Source: Delftia acidovorans NBRC 14950 (GTDB taxonomy: Bacteria; Pseudomonadota; Gammaproteobacteria; Burkholderiales; Burkholderiaceae_C). Taken from it: 32,000 bases of DNA. The stretch covers positions 9,635-41,634 of the forward strand of contig NZ_BCZP01000038.1 of assembly GCF_001598795.1 (NCBI RefSeq), in the 5' to 3' direction. Position numbers and translations under genes: made by a program. Positions 4,197-14,831 of this stretch are shown here, one piece after another; positions within the stretch are counted from its first letter, which is position 1; each line of letters opens with the position of its first letter. Below the pieces are notes generated by a model, which saw only the letters and a list, made by a program, of their open reading frames with translations, had not been told where the DNA came from and searched no databases.

Positions 4197-4288
4197 GAGT
4201 GTTCCTTGCGGAGTTGCTCATGGCAGTGTGCGGATATGCTGTCGGCGCGTCGAACCCCAGTGGGGGCATCACATCATCAGAGAATGGA

Positions 4289-4774
4289 ATGACAATCTTC
4301 AACTCGGCACATCTTCAAGTTTTGCAGCCCTGGGCATCTGTAATTGCTGCTTTCATAGCTGCGTCAGTAGCCATCATTTTTGGTGCAGCCCAGGTTTGGA
4401 TTGCATGGCAGCAATCCAAAACGACAAGAAATAAGCTAAAACTTGACCTATTCGACCGCCGCCTTGAAGTCTACAAAGCTGCATCTGAAGCAATAGCTAC
4501 TGCCATACAAACCAACGACTTCACAGCCTCCGACGAGCGAGCATTTTTTCTGGGAATTCGAGGATCACGCTGGCTGCTTGATGCGGTTGCCGACGACTAC
4601 TTGCGAAGCGACCTATTTCACGCTTTTGATAGGCTTGAAAAAATTCGCCTCAATAAGGGGAAAGTAAAAGCCGATGAGCATCAAAGGCTCGTGTCCGAAG
4701 CCACCGACGCTGTCAGGAAGGAGTTGGCCCGGCTGGACTCTATGTTCGAACGATTCCTCCGCATCGACCACTAG
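4289..4774 (+). CDS. Hypothetical membrane-anchored protein (161 aa), opposite-strand moron in the head module
   Basis: Two hand-counted lines give 47-48% GC. N-terminal TM helix (WASVIAAFIAASVAIIFGAAQVWIAW) followed by a helical soluble domain. Start uncertain: the track ORF opens with GTG at 4199. Confidence 0.6.
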   Translation: MTIFNSAHLQVLQPWASVIAAFIAASVAIIFGAAQVWIAWQQSKTTRNKLKLDLFDRRLEVYKAASEAIATAIQTNDFTASDERAFFLGIRGSRWLLDAVADDYLRSDLFHAFDRLEKIRLNKGKVKADEHQRLVSEATDAVRKELARLDSMFERFLRIDH

Positions 4775-8726: not shown

Positions 8727-10961
8727 TCAGCCCCGCGCGCCGTCAGCGGCCGGCGTCTCGATGCCCTGGCGCACGCCCAGCAGCGGGCTGTCGGGGCGCA
8801 GCGGCGTCAGCGGGTCGGTGTTGTTGGGCACGGCGCCAGGGTCGGGCTGCTGCTGGGGCGTGATCCAGCCCGAGGGCTGCGGAACGATGGGCGCAGCATC
8901 CTGGTCGACATAGCCGCCCGAGCGCAGCAGCCCGTCGGCGACTGGCGCCGCGCCGGGGTTCAAGGCGAGGACTTGGGCGGCCTGGGTGCCGCTGTACAAG
9001 GTGTCCACGTTCACGCCCACGGTCTGTGCACGCGCCCTGCCCGCCTCTGCATCGGTCTTGCCGGCCTGAGCCTCCAGCAGCTTGGCCTTGGCCTGCAGCG
9101 TCGGGTCCTGGCCCTGCTGGGCGCGCTGAGCCTTCTGCTCGTCCGTGTACTGGAAGTTGGTGGGGTCCAGGCGCTGGCCCTTGCACAGCTCGGCCGCCAG
9201 CTTCGCCGGGTCCAGCTCGTAGACGGGATTGGCCGACACCTGCAGCAGCGTCATCAGGAACTGCTGCTGGGCGTCGCGCTCCACCAGAGCCGAGCTGGCG
9301 CGCACGTCGATCTGGAAGTCGCCCTTGATGCTCTCGTCGTCAGAGTAGGTCATCATCCAGTCGAAGTACCGCTGGATGTGGGGCCGCGTCATGTAGTCGT
9401 CGAACCGCTTGGCCAGGCGCCGCAGCACGCTGGTGGCGTTGTTGTTCTGCATCTGCATGCCGCCCAGGGTGTTGGGCGCATCGCCGCGGATGCCCTGCAG
9501 CATGGCCGGCATGCCCGTGGTGTCCTCGGCCATCTTCAGGGCGAACTGAATGGTGTTCATCAGCGTGACCTGGGCGCTGGGCACTGTGAAGGCGTTGAAT
9601 GCTCCGCGCACATCCGAAACGTCCGCATTCGCTTCGGCACGCCAGATCTTCCCCGGCCGCAGACTCCAGACGCCATCTTCCGGTGTCACACCGTTCCCGA
9701 TCACCACCTGAGGCGCTGCTGACAGGCCGTTGTTGTCCATCATGGCGCGGGCTGCACCATTGAGCATGCGCTGTGCCGTGCGGACCTGCCGGCTGATGCC
9801 GACACCCCAGGGCATGCCAGGGCGGCGCTGCCAGGCCAGCACGTCATAGGGGAACTCGCCATCGTCCTGGGGACTGAGCACGACCTTGACCAAGCGGTCG
9901 TTGATCATCACCGCCATGGTGGGCACGCGGTCCTCGTCGCCCTCTTCCATCTCCACCCCCAGGCGCGCCAGGTGCTCGCGTGCGCAGTGGCCGTAGAAGA
10001 TCCACATCTCAAACTCGTTCTCGCCCGGCCGGTAGACGGCTTCCGTGCCCTCGCGGGTGCGGGCCGGGCCTTCGCGCAGCACGGCCAGCAGTTCGGCAGT
10101 CTCGTAGCTGGGGTCGGCCAGCATCTCCTTGATCTGGCGCGGGCCGATGTTCTCGCGCTCCCACGTGTAGCTGCCGTTGTGGATGTTCTCCCCGCAGGAC
10201 GGGTCCGGGAAGAAGTTCCAGGCGTCAATGCGCTTGGAGCCGGGTTTGATCTCATCGAACTTGACGAACTGAGTGGTCTGCGTCACGGGATCCTTGATGG
10301 CCATCCGGCTGGTGCGCATCACGGGATAGGGTCCCTTGAAGACACCGGAGCCGATTCGCGCCGAGTCCTCGATCAGCTGCCGCATTTCCCCGTGCCAGTT
10401 GCTCTCGACCAGCGAATCCTCGATCGCGCGCTGCATACCCTTGGCGGCTTCGGCTGCATTGCGGATCTGCTCCTGGACGAATTCCTCCACGGTCTTCTGC
10501 TTGTAGATCCCGCCCATGGCGTCCATCAGCCGCTGGCGCAATGCTGGGCTGAGCGTCGGCAAAGGCGTGGCCTTGATCTCCCAGGCCCGATCATCCGTGG
10601 GCAGCAGCATGTCCGCCACGCGGGCGCTGGCCGCATCCGTGTAGGGGCGCGTGATGTTAAGGAACACCACCGACCGGGCCGGGCCCTGCTGCCTGGTCTG
10701 CCCACCGATGACGGCCGCCTTCCTGCTGCGGTACAGCTGGTTGGCGTTCTGGAAATTGCGGTTGGCGTCGTCGATGCCCTGGTAGTGCTCCTCGTCCTCG
10801 GTCCACTCCTCCTCGATGCCCGAGCCGGCACGGCCGGCAATGGCCTCGCGGCGCTTGGACAGGAGCGTCAGGACGAACTCGGCGCGCAGGTCGCGCTGGG
10901 GCTCGCCGCTGTCGTCGTGCTGCTGGGCCAGCAGGCCCCCATGGTTGGTGGTGGCTTGCAT
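8727..10961 (-). CDS. Portal protein (744 aa)
   Basis: Large ORF immediately downstream of TerL (TerL stop and portal start are 1 nt apart). Size and position are typical of podovirus-type portals. Confidence 0.85.
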   Translation of the reverse strand: MQATTNHGGLLAQQHDDSGEPQRDLRAEFVLTLLSKRREAIAGRAGSGIEEEWTEDEEHYQGIDDANRNFQNANQLYRSRKAAVIGGQTRQQGPARSVVFLNITRPYTDAASARVADMLLPTDDRAWEIKATPLPTLSPALRQRLMDAMGGIYKQKTVEEFVQEQIRNAAEAAKGMQRAIEDSLVESNWHGEMRQLIEDSARIGSGVFKGPYPVMRTSRMAIKDPVTQTTQFVKFDEIKPGSKRIDAWNFFPDPSCGENIHNGSYTWERENIGPRQIKEMLADPSYETAELLAVLREGPARTREGTEAVYRPGENEFEMWIFYGHCAREHLARLGVEMEEGDEDRVPTMAVMINDRLVKVVLSPQDDGEFPYDVLAWQRRPGMPWGVGISRQVRTAQRMLNGAARAMMDNNGLSAAPQVVIGNGVTPEDGVWSLRPGKIWRAEANADVSDVRGAFNAFTVPSAQVTLMNTIQFALKMAEDTTGMPAMLQGIRGDAPNTLGGMQMQNNNATSVLRRLAKRFDDYMTRPHIQRYFDWMMTYSDDESIKGDFQIDVRASSALVERDAQQQFLMTLLQVSANPVYELDPAKLAAELCKGQRLDPTNFQYTDEQKAQRAQQGQDPTLQAKAKLLEAQAGKTDAEAGRARAQTVGVNVDTLYSGTQAAQVLALNPGAAPVADGLLRSGGYVDQDAAPIVPQPSGWITPQQQPDPGAVPNNTDPLTPLRPDSPLLGVRQGIETPAADGARG

Positions 10962-10962
10962 G

Positions 10963-12267
10963 TCAGTACCCTATCTCGTTGTCCAGTGGCTGCCAGCCGC
11001 CGCCCCGAGGAGCGACGGGCCGCTGCTGCTGTGAGCGCAGCATGTGCTCGGCCGATTGAGCGATGTAGCGGAAGTTGTCGGCGCCGTGGCTGTACTGGTC
11101 GTGCAGCGGTCCCATGGCCTCGCCGGTCTTGGTGCTGACGTGGCGCTGATACCGCTTCAGGCATTCCAGCAGGCGCGCCGTCTTGGCGGCGTCGAAGTAG
11201 CAGCGCGGGAACAGCATGCGGGCGGCCTTGATGCCCTCTTCCACATCCAGCGGGGCCAAGCACAAGACCTGCCGGCGCCCCAGCTCGCGCAGCAGCATCT
11301 CTGCGTTCTTGCCGGTCTGCGGGTTCTTGGTCTTGCCGTCGTGCGGCAGGTAGTCGATGCCCCAGCGATACGGGCGCTTCTCCAGTTGGGTCACATACCA
11401 GTCATAGGTGTGGTGGCTGTCTTCCAGGTAGTCGATGACGCGCACGTCCTGCGGGCCGACCTGGACCATGGTGATGGTCATGGCGTCGTTCCAGCCCAGG
11501 TCCCAGACCGTGTGCACGGGCAGGCGCGGGTCGTAGGGGACGCGGCAGGCCCGGCCGTCGGCATAAAGGTGCTCCACCTCGTGGCGGTAGATGGCGCCGG
11601 CGGCCACCTTGCGGGCCTTACCCTCCCAGATGTGCTCGTAGTCGTCCTTGAGCATGGAGCGCTTAGCCTTCTGGCGCTCGTCCTCCAGCACGACTGGAAA
11701 CCAGGGGTTGTCGCGCCAGTTGATCTGGCAGACCCACGTGTCCGGGCTGGGCGTGGCGATGAACCGCTGGTAGGTCTCGTCCGTCTCCATGTCCGGGTTC
11801 AGGGTCAGCCAGATCTCGGAGCCTTCCTTGCGGATGGTCGGGATCAGCACGTCCCAGGACTTCTTGCTGACGCCGTGGGCCTCTTCCACCCAGACGATGT
11901 CCACGCCCTCGAAGGACTTGATGGTGTCCACCGTGTGGGACTGCAGGCCCGAGAACAGGAACAGCGAGCCGTTGATGCCCCGGATCTCGGAGTCCAGCAC
12001 CTCGAAGAAGGCTTCCAGGCCCAGGCGCGAGATGGTGTCCTTCAGCAGGCGATGCACCGAGTCCTTCATGGACCGCTGGATCTCGCGGGCGCACAGCACG
12101 CGCAGCGGCCGGTCGGCGGCCATGGCCAGGAGGACAGCAGCGACAGCCCAGGACTTGCCGCCGCCACGGCCACCGTGCATGACCTTGTAGCGCCTGGGCG
12201 AGAACAGGGGCTGCAGCTTCTCGGCCAGCTGCAGCTTGGTGAATGGGAGCTCGGCAGGCGCGTTCAT
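10963..12267 (-). CDS. terL: Terminase large subunit (PBSX/Terminase_3-like)
   Basis: 434 aa with Walker A HGGRGGGKSW and VWVEEA Walker B-like motif. ATGA overlap with terS. Confidence 0.93.
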   Translation of the reverse strand: MNAPAELPFTKLQLAEKLQPLFSPRRYKVMHGGRGGGKSWAVAAVLLAMAADRPLRVLCAREIQRSMKDSVHRLLKDTISRLGLEAFFEVLDSEIRGINGSLFLFSGLQSHTVDTIKSFEGVDIVWVEEAHGVSKKSWDVLIPTIRKEGSEIWLTLNPDMETDETYQRFIATPSPDTWVCQINWRDNPWFPVVLEDERQKAKRSMLKDDYEHIWEGKARKVAAGAIYRHEVEHLYADGRACRVPYDPRLPVHTVWDLGWNDAMTITMVQVGPQDVRVIDYLEDSHHTYDWYVTQLEKRPYRWGIDYLPHDGKTKNPQTGKNAEMLLRELGRRQVLCLAPLDVEEGIKAARMLFPRCYFDAAKTARLLECLKRYQRHVSTKTGEAMGPLHDQYSHGADNFRYIAQSAEHMLRSQQQRPVAPRGGGWQPLDNEIGY

Positions 12268-12962
12268 GCGTCGTCGTCCTCCCGCGCAGCAGGCCGCACG
12301 AACTCGACAGCGATGCGGGCTACGCCGCCCTCCCCTGGCCCTGTGCCCACGGGATCGACCTTGTCCATGCCGAAGGCGGTTCGCTCCATGTCCACAACGA
12401 TGCGCAGGCTCTCGGCCAGCACCTTCAGGGTCTTGGAGCGCTCAGGCAGGCTGATGACGGCCTCCAGCAGCTCGCCGTAGCGGTCGCGCCCGGGCTTTTC
12501 GCCAGGCGTCACCACGGCCGCAGCCAGCTCCTGCAGCTTGGCCAGCGTGGCCGGGTCGGTCTGCTGCTCCAACTCGTCCATGAGCCTGTTGGTGAGCTCG
12601 CGAACACGGCGCGCGTCCTTGCGATGGCCCAGCCGAACGTCAGCCACAGCCTGGGCATTGCCGTCGATGACAGCCCGTTCCCGGACTTTGGTATCCGCGG
12701 ATACCTGGCTGGATACCGCCGCCCTGGATACCAGCGCATCAGCCTTGGCCTGGATCTTCTGGGACAGGTCGCGCTCCCAGCCATCCCGCTTGGCGCGCTT
12801 GTTGATGGCGCCGTGGGTGATGCCGTTCTCGTCGGCGATCTGGCGAAGTGTCTTGATGCCGGCCCGGTAGTCCAGCTCTATGCGCTCCCAGTCAGGGGAG
12901 CGGGGGCCGGGGGCTGCGCCCCCTGCGCTGGGGGCTTGGTCGGGATGCGGTGAAGATGCCAT
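12264..12962 (-). CDS. terS: Terminase small subunit
   Basis: 232 aa. N-terminal HTH-like IELDYRAGIKTLRQIADENGITHGAINKRAKRDGWERD, typical of small terminases. Directly upstream of terL. Confidence 0.8.
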   Translation of the reverse strand: MASSPHPDQAPSAGGAAPGPRSPDWERIELDYRAGIKTLRQIADENGITHGAINKRAKRDGWERDLSQKIQAKADALVSRAAVSSQVSADTKVRERAVIDGNAQAVADVRLGHRKDARRVRELTNRLMDELEQQTDPATLAKLQELAAAVVTPGEKPGRDRYGELLEAVISLPERSKTLKVLAESLRIVVDMERTAFGMDKVDPVGTGPGEGGVARIAVEFVRPAAREDDDA

Positions 12963-13000
12963 GCCCGGAGTTTCCCGGGCGCGTGTCTTTTAGGCGAACC

Positions 13001-14062
13001 CTAGCCGGGGGACTTTGGAGTCGGTATTTTCTCTGTCAGCTTAGTAACGACTTCTATCAATCCAAAACTCGCGCTATCACAGCCGTGTTGTGTATCGGCA
13101 GGGGTAAATAACTTCTGCGCCAACTGCCCCTTAATAGTATTCTTAGACTCTTCAGGCATTGCAGCAAGATAGGGCGTTATTGCATTTAGATCCATTGCCT
13201 TGCGTAGATAGGAGTGCTCTTGGGAACGATGAAGCGCAGATTGCTTGGCCGTGTATGCTGCAATAAATGTAAAAAAAGCTGCCACGGCCAAACGAACCAA
13301 GACATGTTGAGTCGTCCGAAGATCAAATTCCAATATCACAAACAACAAAACCGAGAAAAATCCAATACCACACATAGTAATTAAAGAAACTCGTCGATAA
13401 AAATCCGCAGCCTTCTTTTCTATGGTTGCATTTTTCATATACTCCATCGTCAATCCACTGGAAGCCATCTCAGAGATCAAAGCATTTAAATGCTCCGACG
13501 ATGCAAGGACACCTGCTCTGTATTGTTCTATTTTCTCTAATGCTTCATCATTTTTATTTGATGCATTTTTCTCTAGCCTTTTCATTAAAGCGTCGAGACT
13601 TTTATCTGCATTATTGCTATATTCTTCGTATTTAGCTCTCCAGCCAGCGGCTTTCGACTCCAGCTCATCGATACGACTTAAAAGATTTCTTATTTTACCA
13701 TCTGCAACAATCGGAAAATTAATTGCCCCCAAGAATGACTCACAAAATTCTCTGAGTTGCTTCGCAGATTCAAATAGGCCACTTTTTTCAATATCAGCAT
13801 TCAATTTATTACTTTTGGAAAACAGCCTTTCAATTCCAGAACAAAAATTCATTGTATTGTGGACTAATTCTTTCTCCAAAATCCCCCTTGCATCAGAACT
13901 ATTCCGCTCATGATCTTTCGATAGAGATTTTTTTAGATTCAGACCATAATTAACATTCTCATGAAAATCACCAGGCAACCCCCTCAATTTGTCGAGTATT
14001 ATATCAATTTGACGATGTAAAAATTCCTTTTCAGTATCACTTAGAAATTTATCGTTTGACAT
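13001..14062 (-). CDS. Hypothetical coiled-coil protein with a C-proximal 2-TM hairpin (353 aa) on an AT-rich island
   Basis: Hand counts give 33-37% GC, against 72% for a terS line. SD AGAGG sits 7 nt before the ATG. About 225 aa of K/E/N/S-rich helical sequence, then two hydrophobic helices (VSLITMCGIGFFSVLLFVILEF, VLVRLAVAAFFTFIAAYTA), then about 70 aa. Confidence 0.75.
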   Translation of the reverse strand: MSNDKFLSDTEKEFLHRQIDIILDKLRGLPGDFHENVNYGLNLKKSLSKDHERNSSDARGILEKELVHNTMNFCSGIERLFSKSNKLNADIEKSGLFESAKQLREFCESFLGAINFPIVADGKIRNLLSRIDELESKAAGWRAKYEEYSNNADKSLDALMKRLEKNASNKNDEALEKIEQYRAGVLASSEHLNALISEMASSGLTMEYMKNATIEKKAADFYRRVSLITMCGIGFFSVLLFVILEFDLRTTQHVLVRLAVAAFFTFIAAYTAKQSALHRSQEHSYLRKAMDLNAITPYLAAMPEESKNTIKGQLAQKLFTPADTQHGCDSASFGLIEVVTKLTEKIPTPKSPG

Positions 14063-14171
14063 TTATCAACCTCTCTTTTTTACGAAAGCATAGCTCCAAT
14101 ACCTCATTGTAAAGAATGAAGCCAAACTGCGCAGCCAAATGATCGCAATGGATGCGACAGCTAGTCCCCTG

Positions 14172-14759
14172 TTAATTGATCGTACCTGTAGGGACTGTTG
14201 AATTTCGTGTCGACTGGATCATTGCACCAGCCAGCAGGTCCATCTGCGGGCTGGGCTCCACCCGGCGCCCCTCCAGCGCCTTGAGCTTGCCTTCCAGCTC
14301 CTTGATGCGCGCGGCCATCTCGCGGCGGGTGGCGGCCTGCTGGAGCTGCAGTTCCTGTGCCAGCAGGCCGACGTCGTGCTGCAGCTGAAGGTTGCTGTGC
14401 TGCATGGCGTTGCCCTGGGTGCGGAGGGCGATGATGCGCAACTCGCGGGGCCAGATCCGCAACTGCTGGTCGCCAACCTCGATCAGCGTCATGCCGTCAT
14501 CGAGGTCTGCGAAGTAGACCGGACGCGGCGCCCCGGGACCCTTGACCAGCTCGTACACACCATCGGTGGTCCGCCGCAGGATGCCCTCGACATCGATCAT
14601 CCGGGAGACGTGGTCGTCGATGATGTGATAGCTCTTGCCGGTCAGGTCCATGAGCCGCTGTCGTGTGATGTTCTGGCCGAGATGCGCCATCTCCAGGATG
14701 TGATCCCAGATGATTTCGCGTGTGGTGCGTTCGTCGTGCTGTGGCGTGGTGGTGGTCAT
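14172..14759 (-). CDS. Putative winged-helix DNA-binding protein with a C-terminal coiled coil (195 aa); candidate late-gene regulator
   Basis: GGGAGA SD. N-terminal wHTH-like segment (ITRQRLMDLTGKSYHIIDDHVSRMIDVEGIL) and a Q/L/E coiled coil. Last early-type gene before the packaging module. The regulatory role is inferred from position. Confidence 0.55.
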   Translation of the reverse strand: MTTTTPQHDERTTREIIWDHILEMAHLGQNITRQRLMDLTGKSYHIIDDHVSRMIDVEGILRRTTDGVYELVKGPGAPRPVYFADLDDGMTLIEVGDQQLRIWPRELRIIALRTQGNAMQHSNLQLQHDVGLLAQELQLQQAATRREMAARIKELEGKLKALEGRRVEPSPQMDLLAGAMIQSTRNSTVPTGTIN

Positions 14760-14831
14760 GGCGTTCTCCCGGTAAACTGTTGCTTGCTCAGGACATCAGT
14801 CCGGGATCGCCCGCCTCGCGCGGGCTTTCCT

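Follow-up and report, generated by a model that had tools for sequence, protein, structure and literature searches.

Lambda RexA/RexB is a prophage abortive-infection system that is co-transcribed with cI and joins a cytoplasmic sensor to an inner-membrane channel that collapses the membrane potential, and exclusion proteins such as P22 SieA, T4 Imm and HK97 gp15 block an incoming phage without killing the cell. The P2/P4 hotspots have been described as moron and defence hotspots of temperate phages (Rousset et al. 2022, PMC9122126). SLATT proteins are predicted to be pore-forming, cell-killing effectors that oligomerise on a signal, and their activation mechanism has been described as an open question (PMC9226505; bioRxiv 10.64898/2025.12.03.692087; bioRxiv 10.64898/2026.04.29.721553); they are also mobile accessory effectors (PMC9226505). 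The window analysed here, a stretch of 32,000 nt from Delftia acidovorans NBRC 14950 (contig NZ_BCZP01000038.1, positions 9,635 to 41,634), was found to be a prophage. A cargo island (moron) of ~1.2 kb with low guanine-plus-cytosine (GC) content (13008–14212, minus strand) lies in it between a gene matching phrog_8117 and the leader of terS, the small terminase gene. Its open reading frame (ORF; 13001–14062, minus strand, ATG start) encodes a protein of 353 amino acid residues (aa) belonging to a family with a coiled coil and two transmembrane (TM) helices. With a little more than even confidence, the island is read as defence-hotspot cargo of the D. acidovorans prophage, encoding a stand-alone inner-membrane effector for phage-versus-phage conflict.

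The slot upstream of terS was surveyed in 80 IMG/VR loci encoding relatives of the window terS, together with the window and a second Delftia prophage, L001 (n = 82). The survey was anchored on the terS match, and an island was scored when DNA of low GC and at least 400 bp lay directly upstream of terS. Such an island abutted terS in 32 of the 82 loci, and the other 50 were without one. Where terS was ≥96% identical, all loci (7/7) had an island, and the cargo was different in each. The borders were sharp. On the left, flank homology with six cargo-variant phages ended exactly at 14213; on the right, a conserved element began at ~13007. This backbone element 5′ of terS (~45 nt; 12960–13007, minus strand) consists of CCCCGGCTAGGGTTCGCCTAAAAGACACGC, the hairpin GCCCGGGAAACTCCGGGC and ATG, and it was found with ≤3 mismatches in 21 loci, whichever cargo lay upstream. 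The stop codon of the cargo ORF falls within it. The homology breaks thus give better limits (13008–14212) than the 12963–14171 assigned to the island in the earlier note made on this DNA. That note had also pointed to a GCCCGG/CCGGGC hairpin between the island gene and terS. The hairpin exists (12962–12981), but its place in the cargo module had to be given up: since it stands in the leader of 21 loci regardless of the cargo, it is backbone and no island feature. As a cargo terminator it was ruled out, being part of the backbone terS leader and having no U-tract on the gene strand.

The terS leader deserves a separate remark. Composed of CTAGGGTTCGCCTAAAAGACACGC, the 18-nt hairpin and ATG, it was nearly invariant in these loci (among them L001:11040-11097, L077-L083 and L127-L150), even where the terS proteins shared only ~51% identity. 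Candidate roles are those of a late promoter or leader, of an element of translational control, and of a recombination anchor of the hotspot.

The cargo in the slot of related phages included a TIR-TM protein (PADLOC, 1.8e-56), PD-Lambda-5_A (PADLOC, 2.6e-67), a PDC-S15/FRG protein (7.4e-33), a RelA_SpoT-domain protein (Pfam, 2.5e-17), a weak HEPN candidate and several unannotated membrane proteins. The family of the 353-aa protein filled the slot in at least 5 of the 82 loci. Homologues at a terS-proximal prophage hotspot, which had been suggested as a point to check, were thus found, in a slot that holds recognised defence genes in sister phages. Judged from sequence comparison, the slot is a true exchangeable hotspot with fixed borders, the pattern expected of a prophage defence hotspot, and it is flanked by a gene of the early/regulatory side and by the conserved terS leader. 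Other cargo was also seen. The commonest was an unannotated protein of ~213–221 aa that combines a single TM helix at its N-terminus with a helical C-part, present in 7 loci (L080, L127, L130, L132, L133, L145 and L148); it had no Pfam or PADLOC match and is a candidate for a further defence gene. L077 and L082 carried a different unannotated 2-TM protein of 300–356 aa.

A gene at this position might instead belong to the late programme of the phage itself, as an accessory lysis-timing, holin-like or assembly factor. It is co-oriented with the packaging and head genes, the gaps are short, the product has a membrane hairpin, and the lysis genes of lambdoid phages can lie upstream of terS. However, only a minority of the phages sharing this terS carry the gene, the slot being empty in 50/82 loci and otherwise mostly occupied by unrelated cargo. 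Since the gene is missing from most of the phages that have this terS, the phage can do without it. Its foreign composition, a length of 353 aa with ~225 cytoplasmic N-terminal residues (unlike holins), and the occurrence of the family behind CI in P2-like prophages and at chromosomal sites also argue against a late function, to which only a slight probability is given.

The defence-cargo reading is also consistent with the composition of the island. In 200-bp windows, GC was 0.33–0.47 between 13000 and 14200 and 0.61–0.72 on either flank. The 353-aa ORF had a GC of 0.39 and a GC at third codon positions (GC3) of 0.35, compared with 0.68/0.82 (GC/GC3) for terS, 0.66/0.92 for terL, 0.67/0.89 for the portal gene and 0.63/0.83 for the upstream 195-aa gene. 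This contrast exceeds chance by far, and the island of the 353-aa ORF was the sole strong low-GC island of the 32-kb window. The earlier description of an AT-rich, compositionally foreign moron at a module junction, holding a single ORF co-oriented with the late genes, therefore stands, on the GC and GC3 values and the sharp borders. Antisense ORFs overlap the island (for example 13422–13913, plus strand), and relatives keep only the 353-aa frame. The Shine-Dalgarno sequence AGAGG reported earlier was read from the sequence at 14070–14074 (minus strand), 7 nt 5′ of the ATG, and the AT-rich spacer upstream, given before as ~110 bp, is 109 nt long (14063–14171). A relaxed promoter scan gave a tentative −10 hexamer, TACAAT (14106–14111, minus strand). 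TTTACAAT recurs upstream of the 58%-identical paralogue in L001, whose spacer shares the hexamer (a comparison of two spacers).

At its left border the island reaches into the 195-aa gene, as had been noticed from the composition. GC was 0.42 over the last 15 codons of this gene, and the end is AT-rich because flank homology breaks at 14213. The island DNA from 14172 to 14212 encodes its last 13–14 codons (…IQSTRNSTVPTGTIN), and its relatives terminate in …QMSLIG. By this alignment, the insertion has swapped out the native C-terminus and the stop codon of the 195-aa gene.

In L001, the 58%-identical paralogue (P0002) occupies the equivalent slot. In their portal and structural genes, the two prophages are ~93% identical at the nucleotide level, whereas only the C-terminal half of the cargo could be aligned as DNA (76%). 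The proteins were 42% identical over aa 1–194 and 76% identical over aa 195–353, and such rapid N-terminal divergence is typical of conflict genes. It was also observed that the nucleotide homology between the window and L001 (L001:11095-13238) spans the cargo and the 5′ end of terS and ends at ~12730, a mosaic junction within terS, and that the terL families differ (Terminase_3 in the window, 10963–12267; Terminase_6N/6C in L001).

The 353-aa protein had appeared to be an orphan, word-indexed searches giving 3–7 relatives. This status was rejected after an exhaustive search with a profile hidden Markov model (HMM), which recovered 2,512 cluster representatives at E ≤ 1e-3, of which 1,031 reached E ≤ 1e-10 and 209 reached E ≤ 1e-30. 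Members are mostly 360–380 aa long. An exact copy of the window protein, DR66_4254 of D. acidovorans, is labelled ‘hypothetical protein’. The family is large and yet unnamed by Pfam, NCBIfam and PADLOC, and the function labels of PHROGs miss it. Mean pairwise identity was 47% in the C-terminal 160 aa and 14% in the N-part, the length of which is tightly constrained (median 208 aa, interquartile range 202–214).

The architecture given in the earlier note, a helical N-part followed by two TM helices, was borne out by hydropathy, by structure prediction and by heptad analysis. The AlphaFold model (m706f862e9f37; alignment of 125 sequences; mean predicted local distance difference test (pLDDT) score 84) is all-helical. 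An N-terminal helical head (aa 1–90; 13793–14062, minus strand) contains helices 9–27, 31–36, 42–48 and 56–83 with a pLDDT of 55–88, and it is poorly conserved (column conservation 0.1–0.25). It is followed by a heptad-periodic stalk helix (aa 92–225; 13388–13789, minus strand), for which the heptad contrast was z = 4.6 relative to shuffled controls. The stalk runs unbroken into TM1 (aa 226–246; 13325–13387, minus strand; Kyte-Doolittle values up to 2.48 in 19-residue windows); the model shows one helix from 92 to 246, with a pLDDT of 96–98 over aa 130–200 and above 90 in the continuous passage from stalk to TM1. A short, acidic loop (aa 247–254), predicted to be periplasmic, leads to TM2 (aa 255–272; 13247–13300, minus strand; Kyte-Doolittle up to 1.93), after which ~80 aa remain. 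TM2 and a conserved, basic juxtamembrane helix form helix 251–300, followed by two short helices. The post-TM2 helices (aa 273–345; 13028–13246, minus strand) are conserved and predicted to be cytoplasmic (column conservation 0.6–0.84).

In the 125-sequence alignment, E215, R223, M230, Y270, S275, H278, R279 and F319 were invariant. The post-TM2 signature of invariant or near-invariant residues comprises Y270, R273, E274, S275, H278, R279, Q281, D291, P297, P303, K311 and F319, within the consensus LSVPAAYLARESAKHRxQQYxHLQTSLDLKAIxPYxASLPxxEQHKxK. Across the family, the mean number of K plus R was 2.9 before TM1, 0.5 in the loop and 3.2 after TM2. By the positive-inside rule both termini are therefore predicted to be cytoplasmic, and the invariant charged residues would gather on the side of the hairpin that faces the cytoplasm. 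From the register of the helices, R223 would face E274, with E215 close to R279.

This topology bears on a second explanation, non-abortive superinfection exclusion, in which an inner-membrane protein would keep the incoming genome out, or stop an early step at the membrane, and the cell would survive. A prophage-borne inner-membrane protein in an accessory slot would suit such a role, as would the lack of an enzymatic domain in the Pfam scan and the apparent co-transcription of some members with CI, suggested by a TAATG overlap (see below). However, only ~8 residues would be periplasmic, compared with ~300 cytoplasmic ones, conservation is concentrated on the cytoplasmic side, the protein resembles, below threshold, pore-forming SLATT effectors and not superinfection exclusion proteins, and the family also occurs outside prophages. 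Exclusion is accordingly judged unlikely.

The libraries were scanned with the window protein and with the 125 family members. The Pfam hits (BREX_BrxC_helical, DUF4455 and others) and the PADLOC hits (PD-T4-6, LmuB, JetC, ZorA and LeoC) fell on the coiled-coil region below the cutoffs and were discarded as compositional noise; for the window protein itself, the sole PADLOC hit was PD-T4-6 (E = 0.013), again on the coiled coil. PADLOC models of AbiZ or other Abi (abortive infection) proteins did not match the window protein, nor were they among the models most often hit by the 125 members, so that the AbiZ likeness drawn earlier does not extend to a model match. phrog_29215 (function unknown) matched aa 206–325 with E = 6e-9 and probably represents the Vibrio-prophage branch of the family.

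A weak signal recurred for NCBIfam SLATT_1. It was the most frequent and the single consistent hit, found in 63 of the 125 members with a best E of 6e-6, below the threshold; the window protein scored E = 0.22 and 11.5 bits (cutoff 41). The register was alike in 9 of 10 inspected members, residues ~218 to 310/340 aligning with model positions 12 to 100/124 of 132, and the alignment spans from before TM1 to well past TM2. A Pfam SLATT family was not among the frequent hits of the 125 members. When a domain-only model (pLDDT 76) was compared with BFVD, SLATT-annotated proteins were enriched, making up ~8 of the first 30 hits, with ranks 4, 6, 9, 12, 18, 28 and 29 among them. PDB sequence searches brought up no solved SLATT structure, their hits (GET1/2 and a cytochrome c555 trimer) all being spurious, and Foldseek against PDB gave generic helical matches (E > 0.9). 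For profile comparison, control sets were built from DRT10 SLATT-5 (PMC12632851 supplement) and from ThsH of metagenome loci beside a published type VII Thoeris TIR. In hhalign, the family gave 0.7% with DRT10 SLATT-5 and 0.1% with ThsH, the positive control (ThsH with SLATT-5) just 0.8%, and the negative controls 0.2%. The method cannot decide the SLATT relation, because it also misses the one between two accepted SLATT families.

The earlier SLATT analogy thus holds for the 2-TM hairpin with its cytoplasmic flanks, but neither the curated cutoff nor a partner-gene context backs it. The architecture and the best of the weak signals point to SLATT, and a link, possibly of remote homology, is plausible but unproven. 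At the loci assembled for the ThsH control (L159-L188), TIR genes closely related to the published type VII Thoeris TIR are followed by a ~290-aa ThsH-like protein with 2–3 TM helices; in ~10 of them, a protein of ~410–425 aa without TM helices stands in its place, which suggests effector swapping downstream of the type VII Thoeris-like TIR.

The protein might alternatively be a non-autonomous SLATT-type effector, binding at its basic juxtamembrane pocket a nucleotide or small-molecule signal from an unlinked host or prophage system. The conserved cluster of R223, R273, H278 and R279 at the cytoplasmic membrane face would suit this, and models of the SLATT protein ThsH show positively charged pockets between protomers (bioRxiv 10.64898/2025.12.03.692087). 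The mobile, accessory nature of SLATT effectors (PMC9226505) and the sub-threshold SLATT_1 hits also agree with it. On the other side, no signal-generating partner (SMODS/CD-NTase, SLOG, TIR or reverse transcriptase (RT)) was conserved in the 65 context loci described below or among the frequent hits of 147 neighbours, no noncoding RNA (ncRNA) family lay nearby, an Rfam scan of the island and its flanks giving nothing credible, and the N-part of ~210 aa, constant in length, would be left unexplained. Dependence on an unlinked signal is regarded as very unlikely.

Support for the defence reading also came from family members elsewhere. Their contexts were surveyed in 65 loci, 42 of them genome loci (from Pseudomonas, Psychrobacter, Pseudoalteromonas, Vibrio, Marinomonas, Massilia, Duganella and others) and 23 viral contigs. 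The family gene was lower in GC than its 4-kb flanks in all 65, and no neighbour or partner gene was conserved across them; ‘single-gene module’, as the earlier note had it, is therefore a fair description. In three Vibrio cyclitrophicus P2/186-like prophages, the CI repressor gene and the family member overlap, stop codon on start codon, in a TAATG (domain HMM E = 2e-24 and 1e-19 for such CI-coupled members), and in PQ189333 a retron I-B-type ATPase/TOPRIM gene is found two genes downstream of the family member. The CI coupling of these distant members would fit expression in the lysogen. A DUF3427 gene was also observed downstream of the CI-coupled member in PQ189333 (L010:6812-10020) and PQ189357 (L158:5722-7098), and the CI-to-integrase interval of the Vibrio P2/186-like prophages looks like a multi-gene defence island.

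Twelve of the loci were Mu-like prophages, in which the family gene is flanked by a gpG-like gene and the Mu I protease gene and often followed by a second membrane moron. The latter, seen in Pseudoalteromonas and Vibrio (L041:8714-9496, L047, L052, L062, L066, L073 and L074), encodes a low-GC protein of ~260 aa with N-terminal TM helices and a helical domain; the pair may be a two-moron cassette or the result of independent insertion. Chromosomal islands also carry the family gene, and one metagenomic relative was found near an integrase. Among the 147 neighbours within two genes of a family member, recombinases, AlpA and S24 repressors were scattered, and defence ATPases or MADS genes were few.

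The same survey raised the alternative of a lysogenic-conversion or housekeeping membrane protein carried by mobile elements, for example an ion channel or a stress-response protein of the CorA-like kind, with a stalk leading into TM1. In 8 Psychrobacter genomes, the chromosomal location of the family gene is conserved, with neighbours of housekeeping type (GNAT, methyltransferase and xanthine-dehydrogenase-type genes); the long stalk helix passes directly into TM1, and hits to defence models were lacking. This is countered by a GC always lower than that of the flanks, by the defence genes that otherwise fill the slot, by the CI coupling in Vibrio prophages, with a retron-type ATPase gene close by in one of them, and by the rapid N-terminal divergence. 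A housekeeping role is thought improbable, about as much so as exclusion.

Several results, the Psychrobacter site among them, weigh against the reading of the island as defence cargo. Pfam, PADLOC and NCBIfam gave no significant model for the window protein, and no family member carries a functional annotation, public sources giving ‘hypothetical protein’ only. Defence genes beside family members elsewhere were sparse, amounting to a few of the 147 neighbours. The SLATT_1 scores of the inspected members were 12–21 bits against the cutoff of 41 bits, and the SLATT-annotated BFVD hits reached a prob of up to 0.99 but had E values of 0.07–0.7. The 353-aa gene has the same orientation as the late genes in the window, and the family gene likewise in Mu-like phages, which would also suit transcription confined to the late phase. 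No convincing −35 hexamer accompanied the TACAAT candidate, and a strict scan of the spacer gave no promoter. Lastly, the N-part may be a structural stalk only and not a sensor. The name ‘sensor domain’, used for it earlier, goes further than the alignment does: an identity of 14% with a constrained length also fits a structural stalk.

With these points considered, a membrane effector for defence is still the favoured reading. The protein most likely protects the lysogen from other phages through the membrane. In the proposed mechanism, coiled-coil stalks would hold an inner-membrane oligomer together, and a cue from the infecting phage would act either on the cytoplasmic head with its stalk or on the conserved pocket of basic residues near the membrane. 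The signal would then travel down the stalk helix that is continuous with TM1, and the TM hairpins would rearrange into a leak or pore. The membrane potential would be lost and the infection aborted, or early steps of infection would be blocked. We infer oligomerisation, sensing, pore formation and the defence phenotype of the 353-aa protein from these features; the logic would match that proposed for SLATT effectors and lambda RexAB, in one polypeptide.

The remaining features of the window agree with a prophage. Along the minus strand, DnaB, RusA and NinB are followed in turn by two small genes, the island, terS, terL, an SU10-type portal gene and structural genes. Immediately upstream of the island lies the 195-aa backbone gene (14172–14759, minus strand), which matches phrog_8117 (function unknown) alone; the ‘late regulator’ label put on the upstream genes was thus left unconfirmed. 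Downstream follow the backbone gene terS (12264–12962, minus strand; phrog_1206, E = 1.2e-64), terL (Terminase_3; 10963–12267, minus strand) and the SU10-type portal gene (8727–10961, minus strand). Between the 195-aa and 171-aa genes, a terminator-like hairpin, GCCCGCCTCGCGCGGGC followed by a T-run, was seen at 14809–14825 on the plus strand, opposite to the genes. A marginal GC dip at 4201–4700 (0.48–0.49; window mean 0.64) amid the structural genes is possibly a smaller second insertion or an intergenic region.

It is possible, at somewhat less than even probability, that the 353-aa protein is the founding example of a widespread (>1,000 sequence clusters), unannotated single-gene anti-phage system of beta- and gamma-proteobacterial prophages, an autonomous SLATT-like effector whose own rapidly diversifying coiled-coil sensor or stalk replaces a separate signal generator. 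Such a system would reside in several prophage hotspots, namely the slot at the terS leader, the operon of CI and the head module of Mu-like phages. To our knowledge, neither a hotspot 5′ of the terS leader nor this coiled-coil plus 2-TM cargo family has been described. If a defence function is confirmed, a large protein family would be added to the anti-phage catalogue. Separately, the sharply bounded slot before the terS leader offers a practical fishing site for new defence genes in phages of Delftia, Acidovorax and Comamonadaceae. With sensing and membrane parts covalently linked, the protein would be a minimal one-protein model for how SLATT-type 2-TM effectors switch on, which was stated as an open question in the 2026 DRT10 work.

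Compared with known systems, the family resembles the SLATT effectors (SMODS and SLOG-associating 2TM; CBASS, DRT10/UG17, ThsH of type VII Thoeris, and the RADAR/DRT3 accessory proteins) in its 2-TM hairpin and its charged, conserved cytoplasmic flanking helices; SLATT effectors are mobile, defence-linked and predicted to permeabilise the membrane, traits that the family would share. It differs from them in having its own coiled-coil N-part of ~210 aa and no adjacent partner enzyme (cyclase, TIR or RT) or ncRNA. phrog_29215 shares the C-terminal conserved domain (aa 206–325), but this PHROG spans the conserved domain only and has no functional annotation. AbiZ and other single-gene membrane Abi proteins of Lactococcus are similar in consisting of a single gene with TM helices, no enzymatic motif and a proposed action at the membrane, whereas the hosts of the present family are beta- and gamma-proteobacteria and no model match links the two. 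With lambda RexAB, of which library scans of the window proteins gave no sequence similarity, the likeness is one of functional logic, a sensing part coupled to a membrane part, and the Vibrio members lie directly behind CI, as if in one operon; a single 2-TM polypeptide stands here in place of two proteins with a 4-TM RexB, so that the comparison is an analogy only. The P2/P4 hotspots have in common with the present slot fixed, conserved flanks and interchangeable foreign cargo rich in defence genes (PMC9122126), while the position here is 5′ of the terS leader hairpin, in phages of the Delftia/Acidovorax type.

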